Assembly (NCBI GenBank): GCA_028695015.1
Contig: JAQVJR010000001.1
Coordinates: forward strand, 33,645-97,644
Origin: Minisyncoccota bacterium
GTDB taxonomy: Bacteria > Patescibacteriota > Minisyncoccia > UBA6257
DNA length: 64,000 bases
Direction: 5' to 3'
Shown: positions 3,441 to 59,922 of the stretch, in pieces
Layout of the letters: every line of letters begins with the position of its first letter
Position numbering within the stretch: position 1 is the stretch's first letter
The notes under the pieces: model-generated
Databases searched by the model: none
What the model was told of the DNA's origin: nothing
The model's input: only the letters and a program-made list of their open reading frames with translations
Made by a program: the position numbers and the translations under genes

Positions 3441-3540
3441 TAAAAAAAATGCTGCCGCTTCTGGCAAGCCAAAAACGACAGCATTATTAGTATAGCAAAT
3501 CTTAAAACCTTGTCAAGTCTTTTGTGGATAACTTAAGAAA
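3441..3540 (-). promoter_or_regulatory. conserved intergenic module copy 4 (hairpin 3449-3485; -10 3489-3494; -35 3511-3516; upstream-gene terminator 3546-3568)
   Basis: Read directly from sequence. Confidence 0.6.
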
Positions 3541-3586: not shown

Positions 3587-5824
3587 TTAAACTCTTTTTC
3601 CTCTAAAGATAAAATAAGCTAAGCCACCTAAGGCTAAAACAGCTAATAAAGCTATTATGGCTCCTTTATTAGTTGCTGCTTCTTCTTCGGTTTCTTCTAG
3701 TTCTATTGTTTCTATATCTTCAGTTTCTAAAATTTCCATTACTTCTTCTTCCTCTTCTGGTTCTTGCTCAGAACTAACAGGAGTATCTAAAACATCTCCT
3801 TCTGGCACTGAACCATCATCAGCTAAGGCAATAGATTCTCCTAAAACCAATCCTTCACCTAAGCCAAAACATGTTTCATCAGAAATATCTGGTTTCATTT
3901 CAGGACAAAAGATATTATTAATTGCCCATCTGGTAGTTCTATAAACATAACCAGTAGCCATTTCTTCTGAAGACAAACATCCATTAGCAACCCAAGGAGC
4001 TAAAATATCATCCTTGAGCATGGTTTGGAATGTTTTTACTGCATTAAATGTATCTAAATCATAAATTCCATTAACATCTAAATTCAATCCCAAATATCCA
4101 TTTAAGAAGATTTGGAGTTTTCTAACTTCAAATGGATCATTATTAGCTCCATATTGAATGTATTCATGTAGATAAGGAACACAAGCAACACCAGCTACAA
4201 TACCCTCATCTCTTATGGTAGATTCACCTGCTATAGTACCTGATGAAAAACCTCCGCCTCCACCTCCGCCACCACCAGTAGGAGTTCCTCCAGATTCTTC
4301 GGTTTCTGTGTTAGATTGCTCTTCAGGTGGCTCAACACAACGATATACTTTAAGGTCTAAACTTCCTGTATTATCATCCATAGCTCCTTGGTCTTGATAA
4401 GAATTATACCAAGAATTGTACCAATCAGAAATGACAAAACTAACATTTACTTCTTCTTCTCCACTAATATGATAAGCTTTTTGGTATATATGTTCTGAAT
4501 TATAATCCCCCCAAGTAACTACCCCCATTTTGCCGGTTCCCATATCAGAAAGAAGTGATAACACTCCACGATATGGATTTCCTTTAATGCCTACGTCATC
4601 TCTTGGTATTGTTTTCCAACTATCTTTAGTGCCATAGCCTGCATCTGCTTTTTTATTCTCCTCTTTGCCACTATATTTATACACTCCAGAAACCTCAAAA
4701 AGATAATCGCCTGGATTTAAATCTATATTTTGTCCAATGCTATCTTGAGAATCAATATTTATTTCTTTAAACGGCTCTTCTTCTCTCTTGGTCCCTGACG
4801 GACAATCATGGTTTCCATTATACACAGGAACTAACTTGCACGTTTCCGTACAAAAATTACTTCCATCTTCAGCAACTCCTTCAAGCCCATCACATTCTTC
4901 ATCTCCTTCTTTTTTTCCATTACCACATTCTCCTGCTGCTTCTTCTGGCACTTCTAATACATTATAAGCTATACAATAAACATTTTCAGGCCATTGTGAA
5001 GTGTCGTTTCCTAATTGTATAAATTCTTTATTATCACCATTAACTGCATCCTTATAACAACGAAGAGCTGCAAATTTAGTTGCTCCTTCCATTGCTGGGC
5101 TATTATTTAAATCTTCACTAACCCATAATTGACCACCTTCAGTTAGTTGGTTTTGTTGTTCTGGTTTTAGTTCAGAAAAAGAAATGGGTTCATTAGAATT
5201 TACAGTGCTAACATTTGTTTCTTGTTCTTCATCTGTAGAAATTATAAATTGCCAGCCTCTTGCTAAATAGCAAACTCCAGGAATCTCATCTGGATCAACT
5301 GGCTTACCATTATTGTATGAACTGGGAAAACTATTTTCTTGATAATTAGCAAACTCTGTATATTTTTCCCCAGTAGCATCTAAGTGCTCTGCATTAGCAT
5401 TTCCATTAATATCTCCCCAAGATGGACATATCACTTTTATAAAATGAAAACTGGAGTTTATTGTTTCAGACGATCCATTGTCTCCTCCTGAACTTTCGCC
5501 ACAATACCCATGCTCGTGACAATGATTATGTTCTTGTCCTTGTCCTTGTCCTTGTCCTTGCCCTTGTCCTTGCCCTTGTCCTTGTCCTTGTCCTTGTCCT
5601 TGTCCTTGTCCTTGCCCTTGTCCTTGCCCTTGTCCTTGCCCTTGTCCTTGTCCTTGCCCTTGTCCTTGCCCTTGTCCTTGCCCTTGTCCTTGTCCTTGTC
5701 CTTGCTTATTCCCTGCTTCTATTATCCCTGGCTTCAACATCAATCCATTAGTAATTAACAAACTTAATACTATTACAATTGCAAATGTTTTTGTAAGAAA
5801 TTTTTTGTTCATATTTTTTTTCAA
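3587..5824 (-). CDS. large secreted surface protein: (GQ)32 repeat, Myxococcus-type Cys-rich repeat, peptidoglycan-binding domain, poly-Gly, acidic tail, C-terminal TM anchor
   Basis: 745 aa with signal peptide. A 32x Gly-Gln run comes from the CCTTGY hexanucleotide array. CGNGKKEGDEECDG…C…C resembles the Myxococcus Cys-rich repeat. LQIFLNGYLGLNLDVNGIYDLDTFNAVKTFQ resembles PG_binding_1. There is a GGGGGGGGG run, an EEEEE-rich tail and a C-terminal hydrophobic helix ending RGKRV. Confidence 0.7.
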   Translation of the reverse strand: MKKNMNKKFLTKTFAIVIVLSLLITNGLMLKPGIIEAGNKQGQGQGQGQGQGQGQGQGQGQGQGQGQGQGQGQGQGQGQGQGQGQGQGQGQGQGQGQEHNHCHEHGYCGESSGGDNGSSETINSSFHFIKVICPSWGDINGNANAEHLDATGEKYTEFANYQENSFPSSYNNGKPVDPDEIPGVCYLARGWQFIISTDEEQETNVSTVNSNEPISFSELKPEQQNQLTEGGQLWVSEDLNNSPAMEGATKFAALRCYKDAVNGDNKEFIQLGNDTSQWPENVYCIAYNVLEVPEEAAGECGNGKKEGDEECDGLEGVAEDGSNFCTETCKLVPVYNGNHDCPSGTKREEEPFKEINIDSQDSIGQNIDLNPGDYLFEVSGVYKYSGKEENKKADAGYGTKDSWKTIPRDDVGIKGNPYRGVLSLLSDMGTGKMGVVTWGDYNSEHIYQKAYHISGEEEVNVSFVISDWYNSWYNSYQDQGAMDDNTGSLDLKVYRCVEPPEEQSNTETEESGGTPTGGGGGGGGGFSSGTIAGESTIRDEGIVAGVACVPYLHEYIQYGANNDPFEVRKLQIFLNGYLGLNLDVNGIYDLDTFNAVKTFQTMLKDDILAPWVANGCLSSEEMATGYVYRTTRWAINNIFCPEMKPDISDETCFGLGEGLVLGESIALADDGSVPEGDVLDTPVSSEQEPEEEEEVMEILETEDIETIELEETEEEAATNKGAIIALLAVLALGGLAYFIFRGKRV
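5531..5706. repeat. hexanucleotide microsatellite (CCTTGY)n, ~30 units, encoding (GQ)32 on the minus strand
   Basis: Perfect or near-perfect tandem array. Confidence 0.9.
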
Positions 5825-5850
5825 TTTATTAGTTTTCGACCTTTAGTTTT

Positions 5851-6330
5851 TTATTTTTTAAATTTATAGACAAATAAATAAGATATAGCACCTATGCCTA
5901 TTATCCACCACCAAGTAGAAATACCAATGTTTTCTTTATATGCCTGTGCCATTAATTTTTCAGAAGCTGAAAATTCTAGTTCTTCCTCCATTTCTGGGTT
6001 TTTTTCTTGAATTTCTGTTTCTAATACAGTAGTGGGCGTTATGTCAATTATTGTTGTAGTTGTAGGCTTAGTAGTCGTTGTAGTAGGCTCAAGCGTAGTT
6101 GGGGAAGGAATAGGAACAGGGTTTATAACCCCGCAAGTGCAAGAAGGACTATAGGTGCCATCATTACAAACATATCTCCCAACTGATGAGTCACAATGAG
6201 ATACTCCGCCATGCCAAGAACAACAACCTCTTTTAGCATCAACATCATTTATTAAAAATAACAAAGAACAAATTATTATTACTAAAAGTGATAATAATTG
6301 TAAAAATTTTCTATGTTTAATCAAATTCAT
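5851..6330 (-). CDS. small Cys-rich secreted protein with Thr/Pro linker and C-terminal TM anchor
   Basis: 159 aa with signal peptide, a CCSWHGGVSHCD…C…C.C head, a PTTTTTKPTTTT linker, an acidic stretch and a WWWIIGIGAISYLFVYKFKK anchor. Lies 26 nt upstream of 3587..5824, so they are probably co-transcribed. Confidence 0.6.
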   Translation of the reverse strand: MNLIKHRKFLQLLSLLVIIICSLLFLINDVDAKRGCCSWHGGVSHCDSSVGRYVCNDGTYSPSCTCGVINPVPIPSPTTLEPTTTTTKPTTTTIIDITPTTVLETEIQEKNPEMEEELEFSASEKLMAQAYKENIGISTWWWIIGIGAISYLFVYKFKK

Positions 6331-6540
6331 TATATTTACTAAAATCTGAAATAATTAAATGCATAGAAAGCAGAACAGTCTTTTAATTAATCATTAAGGA
6401 AATTAAAATCACTTTTAATAGATCTATTATCCCATCATGAACTATTAGGAGGATTTCTGATATGAGAAAAAACACAAACACTAATCTTCCTGCAATATTC
6501 TTTTTTTAATCCCTAATAGTTGATCAAGTAGTTAATTAAA

Positions 6541-6692
6541 AAAATTGACGAATAACGTCAATTTAACTAATCTGCCTTAAGAGCAGATAAACTTTTGTAT
6601 TTGTTTAAAAGAGAGCATCCCACCATTTTATTGTTTATCTACTTAGTAGTCTCCCCTGGGCCTTTGCAGGCCCAGAGGAGAACCCCACCGTG
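6541..6692 (-). ncRNA. candidate small RNA 2 (promoter TTGACA 6721-6726 / TATCAT 6699-6704; terminator hairpin 6545-6561 + U-run)
   Basis: About 150-nt minus-strand unit containing a 13-bp GC-rich stem (6648-6683, UCUCCUCUGGGCC/GGCCCAGGGGAGA) in an AT-rich gene desert. No match to SRP, tmRNA or 6S motifs that I can recognise. Confidence 0.4.
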
Positions 6693-6946
6693 CTTACATG
6701 ATACTCTATTATTTTTTGTTTGTCAAGTCCTTGTCAAGTTTTTAAATAAAAAACAAATTTGTCAAATTTAAGGAAATTTTTAAAAATTTAATTTTAAATT
6801 TAAAAAATAATTCTTTAAAGTTATTTTAAAGATCCTTATCGGAAAATTTTATTATTCAATGCTTAATAATTCAATTTATAAATCTTAATTATTATATTAT
6901 CAATCAATAACAAGATTTTCTTTAAAACAATCAAGGAATTAGGTTT

Positions 6947-7039
6947 AAAAAAATGGCGTTTTTCAACGCCACTTTAAAACCTCCAAAATTTTGGAAAATA
7001 GGTTTTATATAAGCTCTTCCGGAAAAGCTTACCCCACTA
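6947..7039 (-). ncRNA. candidate small RNA 1 (promoter TTGACA 7068-7073 / TATACT 7046-7051; terminator GGCGTT-GAAAA-ACGCC 6955-6970 + U7)
   Basis: About 95-nt unit with internal palindromes AAGCUUUUCCGGAAGAGCUU and UCCAAAAUUUUGGA. Its promoter is a partial copy of the conserved module promoter. Confidence 0.4.
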
Positions 7040-7111
7040 CAAGATAGTATATATGATAAATAAAAATTGTCAAGTCTTTTATCCACAATCTCATAATTTC
7101 ACAAACTATGG

Positions 7112-7212
7112 AATAAAAAATGCTGTCGCCCTTGGCAAGCCAAAAACGACAGCATTATTAGTATATCAAATCCAAAACCCTTGTCAAGTCTATTGGGGAT
7201 AACTTTTAAAAT
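7112..7212 (-). promoter_or_regulatory. conserved intergenic module copy 5 (hairpin 7119-7156; -10 7160-7165; -35 7182-7187; terminator 7216-7242)
   Basis: Read directly from sequence. What follows downstream is another promoter and a candidate sRNA, not a protein gene. Confidence 0.6.
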
Positions 7213-7247
7213 GAAAAAGGGACTATATTATATAGTCCCTTTTGATT

Positions 7248-7922
7248 TTAATAGTACTCAATACTTTGTGCTGTTACATAGACCACCCTCTTAGTTGGAG
7301 AGAGTTTAATCTTCACTTGTTTAGCTTTCTTTTCTCCAGCTAATCCTTCCTTCAAGTCTACACATTTGACCACTTGTGAATCATCTTCAAAGGTTATCAT
7401 AAAGCAAACCTTTTCCACTGTCACTTTTTCTCCCTTGAAGTTTTGCATTTCAAAATCTACAAATACATCACCCCAGGTCAAATAGCAACAACAGGGTCCA
7501 GAAGGAGGACAAATTGGACAAACACACTCTGGGCATTCATCACAAATACACTCTGGACATTCATCACATATACACTCTGGGCAATCTTCACAAACAGGAC
7601 AATCTGGGCAACAAGAATCACAAGCAGGGCAAGTTGGACAACAAGAATCACAAGCGGGGCAATTACATGGTGGACATGTAGGTGGTGGACAAGGAGGATA
7701 GCAATAACCACATCTTGTCATCAAATCCCTAGGTAAATCACCATTAGCAACTCTTGTTATGCCTTTTGAAGAGTCACAAGAAACCTCTTGCTCAAAGCCA
7801 GTTACCCAAACTTCTACATCTTCTGTTATTGAAGGAATGATTGATCCACTCTTACATCCAGTTAAGAACAATACCATTAAAACCATTGCTAAGATTAACA
7901 ATCTTTTTCTCATTTTTTTCAC
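7248..7922 (-). CDS. lipoprotein with extreme Cys/Pro-rich tandem-repeat core (CPxC / ICDECPEC units)
   Basis: 224 aa with lipobox LFLTGC. A 75-aa stretch contains about 40 Cys (CYPPCPPPTCPPCNCPACDSCCP…CDECPECICDECPECICDECPECVCPICPP…CCC). Consensus promoter and AGGAGGTG SD lie upstream. Confidence 0.65.
   Translation of the reverse strand: MKKMRKRLLILAMVLMVLFLTGCKSGSIIPSITEDVEVWVTGFEQEVSCDSSKGITRVANGDLPRDLMTRCGYCYPPCPPPTCPPCNCPACDSCCPTCPACDSCCPDCPVCEDCPECICDECPECICDECPECVCPICPPSGPCCCYLTWGDVFVDFEMQNFKGEKVTVEKVCFMITFEDDSQVVKCVDLKEGLAGEKKAKQVKIKLSPTKRVVYVTAQSIEYY
7523..7670. repeat. tandem 24-nt repeats (x3) plus ~33-nt repeats (x2) encoding ICDECPEC / CDSCCPxCPAC units
   Basis: acactctgggcattcatcacaaat, acactctggacattcatcacatat and acactctgggcaatcttcacaaac in tandem. 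Confidence 0.8.
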
Positions 7923-11425: not shown

Positions 11426-11525
11426 GTAAAAAAATGCTGCCGCTTCTGGCAAGCCAAAAACGACAGCATTATTAGTATATCAAATCTTAAAACCTTGTCA
11501 AGTCTATTGTGGATAACTTAAAACC
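11426..11525 (-). promoter_or_regulatory. conserved intergenic module copy 6 (hairpin 11433-11470; -10 11474-11479; -35 11496-11501; terminator 11521-11542)
   Basis: Read directly from sequence. Confidence 0.6.
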
Positions 11526-22717: not shown

Positions 22718-22783
22718 CTTTATATTATTAAATTTTACTATAAAAACTTGAAATAATCAAAAAAAGAGGTTATAATATAAAAG

Positions 22784-23128
22784 ATTGAACTGGGCAGCTA
22801 CTGGGATATAATACCCAGAGGAAAGTCCGAACACCAACAATGACCTAATTGTTAAAAGGTAGCAGCTAACAGCTGTCGTTAAGCGTTTAACGCTTAATAG
22901 AGGTGCGAACAGAGACGTTGTGTTTTGAAAAAAATACAACCTCCTTATAGGAGGAGCCCTAAAAGCAATTTTAGGAGTGAAACGGCTAAATCCTTGCTGG
23001 GTGCAAGGTCCGGGCCAAGCCTTAAGCTTGGAGTGACCGCTTGACCTTAATGGCAACATTAAGGCTAGATAAATGGCTGCCGCCTAATCCTTAAAGATTA
23101 GGTACAGAATTCGGCTTATAGGTTCAAT
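22784..23128 (+). ncRNA. rnpB: RNase P RNA (bacterial type)
   Basis: Contains GAGGAAAGTCCG (P4 5' strand) and ACAGAATTCGGCTTATAG (P4 3' strand, consensus ACAGAAnCCGGCUUA). Terminal pairing TTGAACT/AGGTTCAA. Candidate promoter TTGAAA-N18-TATAAT at 22747-22776, and an intrinsic terminator at 23143-23166. Confidence 0.85.
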
Positions 23129-23142
23129 TAATAAATGATAAC

Positions 23143-34720: not shown

Positions 34721-34727
34721 TTTGACT

Positions 34728-34988
34728 TTATAAAATATTGATAACTTTCCATCTTTTATCTTTAGAGATCGGCCTTGTTTCTTCTATAACTACCTTATCA
34801 CCTATTTGACATTGTTTTTTCTCATCATGAGCTTTAAAATTCTTAAACACCTGAAAATGCTTTTTATATTTAGGATGCAATTTCAATCTTGAAACTTTAA
34901 CCACTACTGTCTTATCCATTTTATTTGAAACAACCTCTCCTTTTAGAGTTCTCTTCTTGCTTTTAGGTTTGTTTGTATTTTTCTCCAT
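34728..34988 (-). CDS. rpsQ: ribosomal protein S17
   Basis: 86 aa in the conserved operon slot. Confidence 0.85.
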
Positions 34989-34992
34989 AAAA

Positions 34993-35193
34993 TTAATCTA
35001 TAATTTGAGATTTTTCATTTAGAATAGTTAAAATACGAGCAATGTCTTTTTTCAAAGCACGTACTGAGCGGACATTCTTTACCTTACCGCTAGCTAAATT
35101 AAATCTCAACTCTCTTAATTTCTTTTGAGATTCAGAGAGTAATTGATTTAACTCTTCATTTGATTTCTGACGTAAGTCTTTAGTTTTAACCAT
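34993..35193 (-). CDS. rpmC: ribosomal protein L29
   Basis: 66 aa in the conserved operon slot. Confidence 0.85.
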
Positions 35194-35211
35194 TGTTTGT
35201 TTTTAAATTCA

Positions 35212-48840: not shown

Positions 48841-48904
48841 TACAATATTCTTAAATTAATATTTTATACCCTTAACATCATATCAAAAAGAACATAAATT
48901 AAAA

Positions 48905-48943
48905 AATGCTGTTGTCTTTAATAAAGCCAAAAACAACAGCATT
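48905..48943 (-). promoter_or_regulatory. variant module hairpin (GCTGTTG…CAACAGC) without the canonical promoter
   Basis: Stem has a compensatory C:G to T:A change relative to the other copies. Lies between the Cys-module gene and rsmI. Confidence 0.5.
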
Positions 48944-51612: not shown

Positions 51613-51672
51613 TCATATGTGCTATCTTTTCTTCACAAAACTATGTGTTATTAATTATATACACCAATAAAA

Positions 51673-51711
51673 AATGCTGTTGTCTTTAAATAAGCCAAAA
51701 ACAACAGCATT
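51673..51711 (-). promoter_or_regulatory. variant module hairpin (second copy, inside the duplicated cassette)
   Basis: Near-identical to 48905-48943. Confidence 0.5.
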
Positions 51712-55913: not shown

Positions 55914-55977
55914 ATGATTATTATATCATAAAAAACAATAACAAAAACGCCTTGTTTAGGCGTTTTTTAAATTCTCT

Positions 55978-56223
55978 TTACTCTTCTTTATCTATTATTT
56001 CTTTTTTCTTACTAAAAAGGAAAATATAAATTATTCCCAAAATCCCAATACTATTAACAATCAATAAAGCTATGTACCACCATTGGTCATTATTTCTTGC
56101 TGCCTTCCAGAGAGCAATGCCCCTCCAAACCATATCCCAAATCATAATCAAAATAATAACCCAAGGATTTATTTCTAATAAACCAACACTTAGTGCCATT
56201 GATTCTGTAAATATTTCTGCCAT
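55978..56223 (-). CDS. small 2-TM membrane protein (PLDc_N-like pattern)
   Basis: 81 aa with a W…D…R…K…W…G.LG..Y pattern. Confidence 0.4.
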   Translation of the reverse strand: MAEIFTESMALSVGLLEINPWVIILIMIWDMVWRGIALWKAARNNDQWWYIALLIVNSIGILGIIYIFLFSKKKEIIDKEE

Positions 56224-56236
56224 ATTTATTTTTATA

Positions 56237-56491
56237 TTATTTTACGACCTTATTTTTATTACTTTCTAAGCTCAAGGGCACAGAAAAAATCTTATTGGTT
56301 TGCCTGTGTCCTTTAATAATTTTTATCTGACGCTCTGGTATTTCAAAATATTGTGATAAAACTTCCTTGGCTTCTTTATTTGCTTCACCATGCAAAGGCC
56401 TAGCCTTAACTCTAATTTCATAACTATCTATAGCTTTTTTAACCACCCCCTGTTTACGGGCACGAGAAATAACTTTAACTTTTATTAACAT
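56237..56491 (-). CDS. DUF167/YggU-family protein
   Basis: 84 aa with …GEANKE… and …IIKGHRQTNKIF. Confidence 0.6.
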   Translation of the reverse strand: MLIKVKVISRARKQGVVKKAIDSYEIRVKARPLHGEANKEAKEVLSQYFEIPERQIKIIKGHRQTNKIFSVPLSLESNKNKVVK

Positions 56492-56518
56492 CTATAAATA
56501 AAAAGTTTTCCTAATTGT

Positions 56519-59528: not shown

Positions 59529-59545
59529 TTAATACAATCTTAATA

Positions 59546-59740
59546 TTATGAAGAAATATCTTTTACTAAGCGCTTACGACAACTTGTGCAAATCAACATT
59601 CTTTTCCCATCAGGCATTCTAAACCATTGTAGATTAGGATGTTGGCGATGACGAGCCACTGGATTAAAAACAGAACGTATTTTTCGATAACGCACTGCTT
59701 TCTGATATGTTTTTCCACAAATTCCACAAATTCGAGGCAT
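59546..59740 (-). CDS. rpmB: ribosomal protein L28
   Basis: 64 aa with …FNPVARHRQHPNLQ… and CxxC pairs. Confidence 0.8.
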   Translation of the reverse strand: MPRICGICGKTYQKAVRYRKIRSVFNPVARHRQHPNLQWFRMPDGKRMLICTSCRKRLVKDISS

Positions 59741-59922
59741 AATAATAAATTAAAGTTAAATAGAGGGCCTTGTCTGAACTTAAGGTCGAATCAGCCTAGT
59801 ATCAAGTGGGTGTTCGCGCCTTTATCCCGCAGGACAAAGAATACTGAACTCCCTTAAGATAATCCACGTCCTGATTCATTCCTTAATCTAACAAGACCCA
59901 GTGAATATTATAGCACAAAAAA

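Follow-up and report, generated by a model that had tools for sequence, protein, structure and literature searches.

What occupies the island at positions 6331-7247, the largest of the 74 gaps between features in the 64-kb window (the whole stretch of DNA analysed here), with a median length of 19.5 nt for such gaps, counted between open reading frames (ORFs) of at least 100 aa and RNA genes, and with 61 of the 74 shorter than 150 nt? The first-pass annotation of this DNA had already remarked that most intergenic gaps here are below 150 nt and that this stretch has no credible ORF, and both remarks are borne out by the gap count and the ORF listing, with no ORF of 60 aa or more lying within 6331-7247. 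The island holds three tandem promoter-to-terminator units on the minus strand, here called units 0, 1 and 2, which are drawn from two RNA/DNA element families specific to one clade of Candidatus Paceibacterota, in the Candidate Phyla Radiation (CPR). The sequences of units 1 and 2 mark them as paralogs within a single RNA family not catalogued before, which is characterized by a GUGGGG box and has no match in Rfam. The reading that we favour, with a probability of roughly 0.55, is that unit 2 is a terminator-containing 5' attenuator leader of the operon encoding a 159-aa and a 745-aa protein, that unit 1 is an orphan member of the same family, and that unit 0 is a copy of a generic module.

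The credible signals of the island all lie on the minus strand, as do the two flanking genes, which encode Cys-rich signal-peptide proteins of 224 aa (7248-7922) and 159 aa (5851-6330). Between 5800 and 8100 a scan finds 19 promoter-like sites, against 10.8 +/- 3.8 in shuffled sequence, and 8 terminator-like sites, against 1.0 +/- 1.0. Predicted promoters of the sigma-70 type (TTGACA and a TATAAT-like hexamer, 16-18 nt apart) match at 11 of 12 positions at 7187..7160 and 7073..7046 and, overlapping each other ahead of unit 2, at 6737..6708 and 6726..6698. Intrinsic terminators, that is a G+C-containing hairpin with a U-run directly behind it, were found by the scan at 7156..7119 and 6564..6542, and that of unit 1 (6974-6951, with U7) is seen in the fold. 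The folding z-scores relative to shuffles are -6.3 for unit 0, -4.14 for unit 1 (-31.4 kcal/mol) and -5.65 for unit 2 (-54.8 kcal/mol for an RNA of about 155 nt, from about 6691 to 6535). The two minus-strand units described earlier are thus real, with intrinsic terminators as claimed apart from small slips of coordinate, but a third, unit 0, had been overlooked. Of the promoters given for them, that of unit 1 is indeed TTGACA-16-TATACT but runs from 7073 to 7046 (7068 being the end of the -35 hexamer rather than its start), and that of unit 2 has the hexamers TTGACA and TATCAT as reported, but with a spacing of 17 instead of 16 and a span of 6726..6698.

The family was assembled from related loci (L-numbers below), found via the neighbouring GH113 gene and labelled Candidatus Paceibacterota; the lineages from which these come have GH113 proteins sharing 57-76% identity with that of the window, and others were fetched via homologs of the 745-aa protein. 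The island itself is 100% identical in the metagenome-assembled genome GCA_028718665.1 and in several short contigs. Three types of element can be distinguished: type A, the form of unit 2, at L064 6005-6215 and L061 4610-4793 (the latter cut by the contig end); type B, in L011, L065, L066, L067 and L068; and type C, a short form similar to unit 1, in L060, L064 3850-3995 and L069. All types align over AA..GUGGGGAU..AUUUCUA..A/U-rich..UUUGAGAUUGGCGUUUUUGCGCCAAUUUUUU, the RNA having a 5' end of (A)CGGUGGGG or AAUGGUGGGG, a core of GGGGAU...AUUUCU and a terminator of UUGGCG...CGCCAA-U6.

A covariance model of the shared core, R1, was built from nine sequences, including both window units, and finds 13 instances in the fetched loci and the window. 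In all, its members make up about 11 distinct loci and come from six or more species-level lineages of related Paceibacterota. Both units match over their full length on the minus strand, unit 2 at 76.3 bits (E = 8e-10) and unit 1 at 68.3 bits (E = 1.6e-8), scores that are not independent, and as evidence of membership partly circular, because both sequences sat in the training alignment. Independent matches are provided by L069 (75 bits, in a locus fetched via a protein homolog) and by the orthologs of units 2 and 1 in a strain 94.7% identical to that of the window, L144, at 76 and 63 bits, respectively. In 613 kb of unrelated DNA with the box pattern, R1 finds nothing at E < 0.01. The pattern TTGACA-N26-34-GTGGGG occurs in the 64 kb only at units 1 and 2, against an expectation of 0.03. 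When metagenomes were scanned with CTTGACAA-N26-28-CACGGTGGGG, 47 matches were returned, nearly all of them chance occurrences in high-GC contigs and only one, L053, representing the same species; the 71 matches to the box pattern in viral contigs are likewise chance, and none passes R1. Rfam returned only noise for a type-B relative at E <= 10, and our literature search found no paper describing these elements.

Selection on the RNA is indicated by the terminator helix, which is 97% paired over the 13 members, with compensatory change in four of its ten pairs and a covariation score reached by none of 500 shuffles. For the internal helices, namely GGGGA:UUUCU and an A/U-rich hairpin, compatibility with pairing is 88%, against 26-59% for slid controls, and the AUUUCU sequence adjoins the core box in every case and is complementary to it (97% pairable). 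The number of boxes and their spacing vary: there is one in type C, as in unit 1, and elsewhere they lie 11, 24-26, 30, 46 or 65 nt apart, those of unit 2 being separated by about 30 and 65 nt.

These same boxes might be taken for DNA operators lying just downstream of the -10 and resembling those of MraZ, with the RNA incidental. MraZ binds direct repeats of a GTGGG-like box, and its operators comprise at least three repeats, in 10-11-bp phase, overlapping the promoter or transcription start. The first box does lie at a fixed distance from the -35, the arrangement being CTTGACAA-N27-CACGGTGGGG in unit 2 and in the relative L011 and CTTGACAA-N27-TAGTGGGG in unit 1, or CTTGACAA-N27-(C)A(C)GGTGGGG for the three; two boxes are 11 bp apart in L064; and two chance promoter-plus-box matches in metagenomes, L029 and L056, precede what we read as MraZ-like ORFs, with GTGGG repeats in L056. 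We nevertheless give operators only a slim chance. The variable number and spacing of the boxes do not fit the MraZ arrangement, unit 1 having a single box and L064 alone an 11-bp pair; the core box is always next to its complement AUUUCU; and the conserved terminator with its covariation argues for selection on RNA. No mraZ gene lies near the island.

The linkage of these elements to genes is regular. In all nine loci where a downstream gene is in view, the unit points in the same direction as an ORF with a signal-peptide-like N-terminus and lies 34-206 nt ahead of it. The gaps from terminator to ATG have a GC content of 0-26%, being pure A/T in L011 (58 nt) and L067 (34 nt), and eight of the nine have no promoter match above 8/12. 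Taking linkage to mean a co-oriented position no more than 210 nt upstream of a signal-peptide gene with no promoter between, unit 2 is linked and unit 1 is not. In L064, a type-A unit stands directly before a 562-aa gene whose product is 60% identical at its N-terminus to the window's 745-aa protein (W_745), and this is followed by a 624-aa gene whose product is 46% identical to W_745; in the window, by comparison, the 159-aa gene intervenes between the leader and the 745-aa gene. The 420-aa gene of L011 encodes, according to BLASTP, another secreted protein rather than an ortholog of the M16 peptidase.

Within the L067 member, at 3791-3875, lies a cyclic di-GMP (c-di-GMP) II aptamer (RF01786, scoring 61.8 bits with E = 1e-13, above the gathering score of 53.5), embedded between the family's ACGGUGGGG head and its core and terminator, so that in at least one case the scaffold serves as a cis-regulatory leader. 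A full-text literature search found no paper mentioning both the c-di-GMP-II riboswitch class and CPR bacteria. Among the roles that had been suggested for the units from the outset, that of a cis-leader is thus the best supported for unit 2, through the linkage, the promoter-less gaps, the connection of L064 to W_745 and the L067 aptamer, but it does not extend to unit 1.

The linkage bears also on the possibility that each of units 1 and 2 yields a small RNA (sRNA) acting independently in trans, about 95 and 155 nt long, respectively, in which the conserved, unpaired 5' end (GGUGGGG) or the CU-rich, anti-Shine-Dalgarno-like UUCUCCUCU would be the seed for pairing to target mRNAs; proximity to surface-protein genes would then reflect co-inheritance in a cassette and not control in cis. 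The complete promoter-to-terminator architecture and the well-folded RNAs suit such a role, conservation is strongest at the very 5' end, as it is in sRNAs that carry a seed, unit 1 is solitary, with no gene following it, and no constraint is seen on the 5' untranslated region (UTR) that leads from unit 2 to the 159-aa gene. We consider this unlikely, though a reading to be taken seriously, above all for unit 1. Against it stand the nine out of nine loci with context in which a gene in the same orientation comes straight after the unit, eight of them with no credible promoter between, and the riboswitch aptamer embedded in one member. Moreover, the CU-rich strand is itself paired within a 14-bp stem, and CCCCACC targets are essentially absent from the translation-start regions of the window; over the whole 64 kb, GGTGGGG/CCCCACC occurs four times against 1.8 expected, a chance level for this stretch. 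The leader and sRNA readings are compatible, in that terminated leaders can also act in trans.

Constraint was estimated by comparison with the 94.7%-identical strain (L144/L145), the linker, spacer and 5' UTR (34 events in 433 nt, 7.9%) being taken as the neutral set. L144 comes from a biogas-fermenter metagenome (ERZ925054, record SRR3184675). The promoter and RNA of unit 2 together show only three events in 206 nt (1.5%; Fisher p = 8e-4 against the neutral set), and unit 0 shows one difference in 93 nt (1.1%; p = 0.011), as compared with 17 in 480 nt (3.5%) for the 159-aa gene and 14 in 253 nt (5.5%) for the 3' end of the 224-aa gene. Unit 2 and the module represented by unit 0 are, in other words, more conserved than the flanking non-coding DNA and also than the neighbouring coding sequence. 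There are 17 events in the 204 nt of the spacer, and the 14 in the 204 nt of the 5' UTR (6331..6534) are neutral-like. Within unit 2, the promoter region (6692..6740) has zero differences and the core and terminator have one in 94 nt; the sole substitution in the stem of the 5' domain, U to C at 6676, would convert its single G.U pair to G-C, as placed on the predicted fold.

The 5' domain of unit 2 has homologs at L064 6050-6105 and L061 4655-4722. Its 14-bp stem, which in the predicted fold sequesters the CU-rich UUCUCCUCU strand, corresponds to the GC-rich stem of 13 bp described in the first-pass annotation; the stem is present in the fold, but it is not conserved as such in the relatives. 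What is conserved is the CU-rich strand, GGUGGGG(C/U)UCUCCUC(Y)RGGCC, while its G-rich partner changes place, following it in the window and preceding it in L061, and L064 lacks most of that partner. From the unit 2 terminator to the ATG at 6330 is a distance of 206 nt, over which the best promoter match is 8/12. A perfect 10-bp long-range helix can be drawn in this 5' UTR between 6521-6512 (AACUAUUAGG) and 6449-6440 (CCUAAUAGUU), enclosing an anti-Shine-Dalgarno-like CCUCCU; both of its arms are unchanged in L144 despite the neutral rate of the UTR as a whole.

The way in which unit 2 would operate can be outlined as follows. Transcription would start about 7 nt past the -10, yielding an RNA that begins with ACGGUGGGG, and this leader would fold into hairpins and end in the conserved intrinsic terminator. 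As there is no usable promoter from the terminator to the start codon, the 159-aa and 745-aa genes would be expressed only when RNA polymerase reads through the terminator, which would make the leader a conditional terminator, or attenuator. The most likely sensor would be the GUGGGG(A/U) box or boxes together with the AUUUCU box, which might form a small G.U-rich hairpin or else bind a trans factor deciding whether the terminator forms, with some trans factor or ligand presumably setting the level of read-through.

Several points tell against this account. Transcription start, termination and read-through at unit 2 are all inferred from sequence. The sample of the family is small, with its roughly 11 distinct loci coming from a single clade. 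The internal helices show no double-sided covariation in six sequences, and the sensor structure is therefore unproven. No alternative antiterminator conserved across the three types was found. A weak, non-consensus promoter may lie in the 206-nt gap before the 159-aa gene, and the A/T-rich gap of L064 contains one 10/12 promoter match. Some 130 nt separate the aptamer of L067 from the nearest terminator downstream, an unusually long distance if the expression platform is a simple one, and between 6200 and 7400 of the window there is no match to c-di-GMP-II (RF01786) even at E <= 10. Finally, unit 1 has no gene behind it, only an A/T spacer of 204 nt leading to unit 2, and with its promoter it differs from L144 by 11 events in 143 nt (7.7%), which is neutral-like. 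A part for the head itself as antiterminator was considered and rejected as not general: a likeness to the terminator's 5' arm is seen in certain members (for example AAUGGUG against CGCCAUU in L060), and not in unit 2 or L064.

Table 1. Features of the island and of the genes behind unit 2, in window coordinates
Feature	Position	Strand	Content	Basis
Bidirectional terminator hairpin	7215..7243	both	13 bp; closes the upstream 224-aa gene	terminator scan of both strands and direct reading
Unit 0, module copy	7113..7205	minus		promoter/terminator scan and fold
Unit 0, DnaA-box-like sequence	7203-7194	minus	TTATCCCCAA	
Unit 0, -35	7187-7182	minus	TTGACA	promoter match 11/12
Unit 0, -10	7165-7160	minus	TATACT	promoter match 11/12
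Unit 0, hairpin	7156-7119	minus	17 bp, CUUG loop	
Unit 0, U-run	7118-7113	minus		
Unit 1, promoter region	7043..7088	minus	-35 at 7073-7068, -10 at 7051-7046; inverted module box TTGTGGATAA in front	
Unit 1, predicted RNA	6945..7042	minus	about 95 nt; UAGUGGGG head; hairpins 7032-7009 and 7007-6975; terminator 6974-6951 and U7, to about 6946	
AT-rich spacer between units 1 and 2	6741..6944		204 nt; windowed GC 11-20%	composition
Unit 2, promoter region	6692..6740	minus	tandem -35 hexamers 6737-6732 and 6726-6721; -10 TATCAT 6703-6698	scan
Unit 2, 5' domain	6629..6691	minus	ACGGUGGGG head (box 6689-6683); 14-bp stem-loop with GCAA loop, 6681-6650	fold
Unit 2, core and terminator	6535..6628	minus	AUGGUGGGA box 6625-6618; AUCUGC/GCAGAU hairpin; terminator 6564-6542; U-run to 6535	
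Predicted 5' UTR, unit 2 terminator to ATG of 159-aa gene	6331..6534	minus		inferred
Downstream genes of unit 2	3587..6330	minus	159-aa Cys-rich signal-peptide protein (6330-5851), then 741/745-aa surface protein (5812/5824-3587)	

Unit 1 calls for separate treatment. Its RNA differs from that of L144 by six events in 98 nt, of which at least four fall in loops, linkers or unpaired ends, according to our placement on the predicted fold; the other two, a repeat-ambiguous deletion of UA and a change in a terminal pair, can both spare the stems. By the same placement the stems, the box and both promoter hexamers (-35 and -10) escape clear disruption, and the ortholog in L144 still matches R1, as noted above. 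We would read unit 1 as an orphan paralog that either lost its gene or never had one, most likely an orphan leader, and it may yield a free RNA of about 95 nt. The spacer that follows contains no ORF, no conservation and no promoter better than 9/12. Ahead of the unit 1 promoter, at 7079-7087, is an inverted copy of the 10-mer of the module, in the same position relative to the promoter as in the module itself; three substitutions have wiped it out in L144.

A possible origin for such an orphan is suggested by comparison of related strains. L060, L061 and L062 share an identical GH113 protein, the 221-aa gene and the module; beyond the next promoter L060 has a type-C unit and L061 a type-A unit, and in L011 a type-B unit comes directly after GH113 and is succeeded by a different gene. 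These differences suggest strain-level exchange of cassettes at a shared promoter, and would place the island within a cassette-swapping region. The regions compared were L060 4980-5450, L061 4440-4793 and L062 4020-4289, two of the three contigs ending at the point of divergence. Between the module and the 221-aa gene of these strains (L060 4172-4279, and also in L061 and L062) is a 35-aa Gly/Arg-rich ORF (MAKGKGSSGGHGRGRDGSGGQRGGPGPRSGGSRKK) with a strong Shine-Dalgarno sequence and no counterpart in the window.

Such shuffling raises the further possibility that the island is largely non-functional debris, consisting of orphan promoter-leader-terminator stubs and transcribed noise. This agrees with the different units carried by L060, L061 and L062 after the next promoter, where contigs break; with the passage in L011 from GH113 straight to a type-B unit and another gene; with the neutral rate of unit 1 and its promoter (7.7% against 7.9%) and the loss of the inverted box; and with the lack of constraint on the spacer and 5' UTR. 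For the island as a whole we think it decidedly improbable, as unit 2 and the module are more conserved than their flanks (by the p-values given above), the boxes and terminator have been kept, with compensatory changes, across lineages with GH113 proteins only 57-76% identical, and even in unit 1 none of the six changes is clearly disruptive. Applied to unit 1 alone, debris is a plausible description, with odds that come close to even; it is not one for unit 2.

Unit 0 belongs to the second of the two families, a dispersed module of about 100 nt with the form (TTATCCACAA)-N4-ACTTGACAAG-N-TATACT-N5-UGCUGUCG...G(CUUG)C...CGGCAGCA-U7, and its predicted transcript comprises little beyond the hairpin of about 45 nt. 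The promoter of unit 1 had been noticed earlier to be a partial duplicate of the conserved-module promoter; the likeness is there, but the island contains a complete copy of the module, unit 0, and not merely the source of that promoter. Other copies, 86-91% identical, lie at about 370-462, 1208-1265 (or 1170-1265), 2077-2134 (or 2039-2134), 3444-3534 and 11429-11519, making at least six in 12 kb, and the relatives have more than 25; a search of viral contigs with the module pattern gave 0 matches. In the hairpin, the base and the CUUG loop closed by a G-C pair are kept and the middle of the stem covaries, with compensatory change in five of 17 pairs. The hairpin also occurs without the promoter, as an ordinary gene terminator, at 48902-48941 and 51670-51709. 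Unit 0 would appear to be a copy of the lineage's general promoter-proximal terminator module, which precedes many genes.

It is a puzzle that a strong predicted promoter should fire straight into a terminator ahead of so many genes. In most copies of the module a perfect DnaA-box 9-mer (TTATCCACA, minus strand) stands 4 nt upstream of the -35; it is perfect at 451-459, 2123-2131, 3523-3531 and 11508-11516, has one mismatch at 1254 and 7194, and is present in L011, L060, L063 and L065 as well. This DnaA-like box may be a site for a transcription factor.

These 9-mers, together with a 200-nt stretch of 11-20% GC, a GC-rich stem in an AT-rich background and the sheer size of the gap, might also suggest a replication origin, a decayed protein gene or one of the known housekeeping RNAs (6S, transfer-messenger RNA (tmRNA), signal recognition particle (SRP) RNA or a fragment of rRNA). 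We regard all of these as extremely improbable. The Rfam check that had been proposed assigns the island to no known family at gathering thresholds, and at E <= 10 the matches are noise (Histone3, at 27.7 bits against 34, DapZ, sRNA162, PyrR and others). Neither Rfam nor ARAGORN detects tmRNA, SRP RNA, RNase P or an rRNA fragment in the island, ARAGORN reporting only four tRNAs elsewhere. The suggestion of a 6S-like RNA has no Rfam match behind it even at E <= 10 and fails on the fold too, both minimum free energy and centroid structures consisting of separate hairpins with unpaired ends, with no rod and central bubble. A longer pseudogene, the other alternative raised at the outset, left no remnant detectable by tblastn of the 895 open frames of the window and all related loci, which returned only the module repeats, at the nucleotide level. 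As for an origin, the GC skew is uniformly negative over the 64 kb and the genes on both sides are co-oriented, which excludes one from the island; the DnaA-like boxes, moreover, are dispersed with the module and form no local cluster.

Other candidates were tried and set aside. A leader peptide at the core box seemed possible in type C, which reads AUGGUGGGG, but the AUG is absent from other members (ACGG, UAGU, AAAGG) and the frames run for 7, 21 or about 33 codons; we therefore take the box to be non-coding. A plus-strand ORF of 15 aa at 6462-6509, with a perfect Shine-Dalgarno sequence, has its frame broken in L144. The four G-tracts needed for a G-quadruplex are present in some members only, with one in type C. 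Pairing of UGGUGGGG with the 3' end of tRNA (CCCCACCA), in the manner of a T-box, would require UGG where the head often has ACGG.

For the genes downstream of unit 2, Pfam gave no confident family, and an exact-sequence look-up has neither the 745-aa protein nor the 224-aa protein of the upstream flank on record. The 741/745-aa surface protein contains a long (GQ)n repeat. Its ORF probably starts at the ATG at 5812 (MNKKFLTK..., as in L064) rather than the TTG at 5824. Its ortholog in the 94.7%-identical strain (L144 1875-4124) appears in the gene calls as a pair, one of 78 aa and one of 530 aa, suggesting variation in repeat length or frame. A motif, AGGTCGA(A/T)AAA, recurs 15-45 nt upstream of the start codons of secreted-protein genes that have no Shine-Dalgarno sequence, both on the minus strand of the window (5841-5832, about 12437 and about 12018) and in the relatives (L060 about 5322; L064 about 4031, 6237 and 6267; L069 about 4853; L070 about 150 and 205; L011 about 7255); it could be an alternative signal for translation initiation or processing.

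Elsewhere in the window the other large gaps, 55914-56518 (605 nt), 34721-35211 (491 nt) and 59529-59922 (394 nt), contain no R1 match. A class A RNase P RNA is found at 22782-23134 (106.7 bits against a gathering threshold of 100), overlapped on the opposite strand by a 100-aa ORF (22757-23059) that is probably spurious.

Gene regulation in CPR bacteria is, to our knowledge, almost unexplored, because most of them are uncultured. What the island offers is a candidate clade-restricted RNA family of a familiar kind, the terminator-containing 5' leader: a defined cis-element, with a covariance model and about 11 loci, ahead of variable secreted or surface proteins that presumably mediate attachment to the host. 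One of its members, in L067, ties the family to c-di-GMP signalling, and the loci appear to evolve through cassette swaps at a shared promoter. If unit 2 is indeed an attenuator, the factor recognising the GUGGGG box would provide a handle on the switching of surface proteins in these minimal-genome symbionts. A broader and much more tentative idea, which we think has the odds well against it, is that the GUGGGG-box leaders and the CUUG module are cis-elements of a lineage-specific antitermination or RNA-binding system that gates hypervariable surface cassettes in a coordinated way, with the shared promoter and leader doubling as the recombination joint. Should that be true, the leader would be a modular platform for variation in host attachment in episymbiotic Paceibacterota, a scaffold into which further sensors, the c-di-GMP-II aptamer for instance, would be inserted and at which strains would exchange cassettes.

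Among known systems, the module recalls the Correia and NEMIS-like dispersed repeats in being repeated and in combining a strong promoter with a terminator hairpin; unlike those elements, it has no visible terminal inverted repeats or target-site duplications, the stem around its conserved CUUG loop covaries as that of an RNA would, and viral contigs yielded no copies of it. Units 1 and 2 share with 6S RNA a roughly similar size and a non-coding nature, but are made of independent hairpins plus a terminator, not of a closed rod (about 180 nt) with a central bubble. They are closer in outline to sRNAs of the RybB/OmrA type, which are also 90-160 nt long, with a promoter and terminator of their own and the strongest conservation at the 5' end, but apart from unit 1 the members with readable downstream sequence sit co-oriented immediately upstream of a gene, and no targets were identified in the window.

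The remaining likenesses are to leaders. As in the RfaH/ops (JUMPStart) and LoaP systems, a conserved G-rich non-template element stands at the start of the transcript before long surface-protein genes that have no Shine-Dalgarno sequence, and a terminator would have to be overcome for their expression; the ops 12-mer (GGCGGTAGNNTG), however, is absent from the island, with no match at two or fewer mismatches in 6331-7247 and nine in the window against 9.4 expected. As in protein-mediated attenuation (the TRAP/trp leader, PyrR sites, the BglG/LicT RAT), the terminator is preceded by a short single-stranded box in one to three copies, and the number and spacing of the copies vary from gene to gene, as would be expected for one common RNA-binding regulator, but the sequence of the box is unlike any of these, the Rfam PyrR model reaching only 16-19 bits against a threshold of 54, which is noise. 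Compared with riboswitch leaders, the units of the window have no recognisable aptamer of any Rfam class, their conserved parts being short boxes (GUGGGG and AUUUCU) and not a complex fold with covariation, and no conserved antiterminator was found. The order of parts is nevertheless that of a riboswitch or attenuator leader, namely a promoter, a structured leader, a Rho-independent terminator and a gene, with no later promoter, and the c-di-GMP-II leaders (RF01786) of surface and adhesion genes are especially alike, since here too the genes downstream encode secreted or surface proteins and the L067 member of the family holds just such an aptamer.

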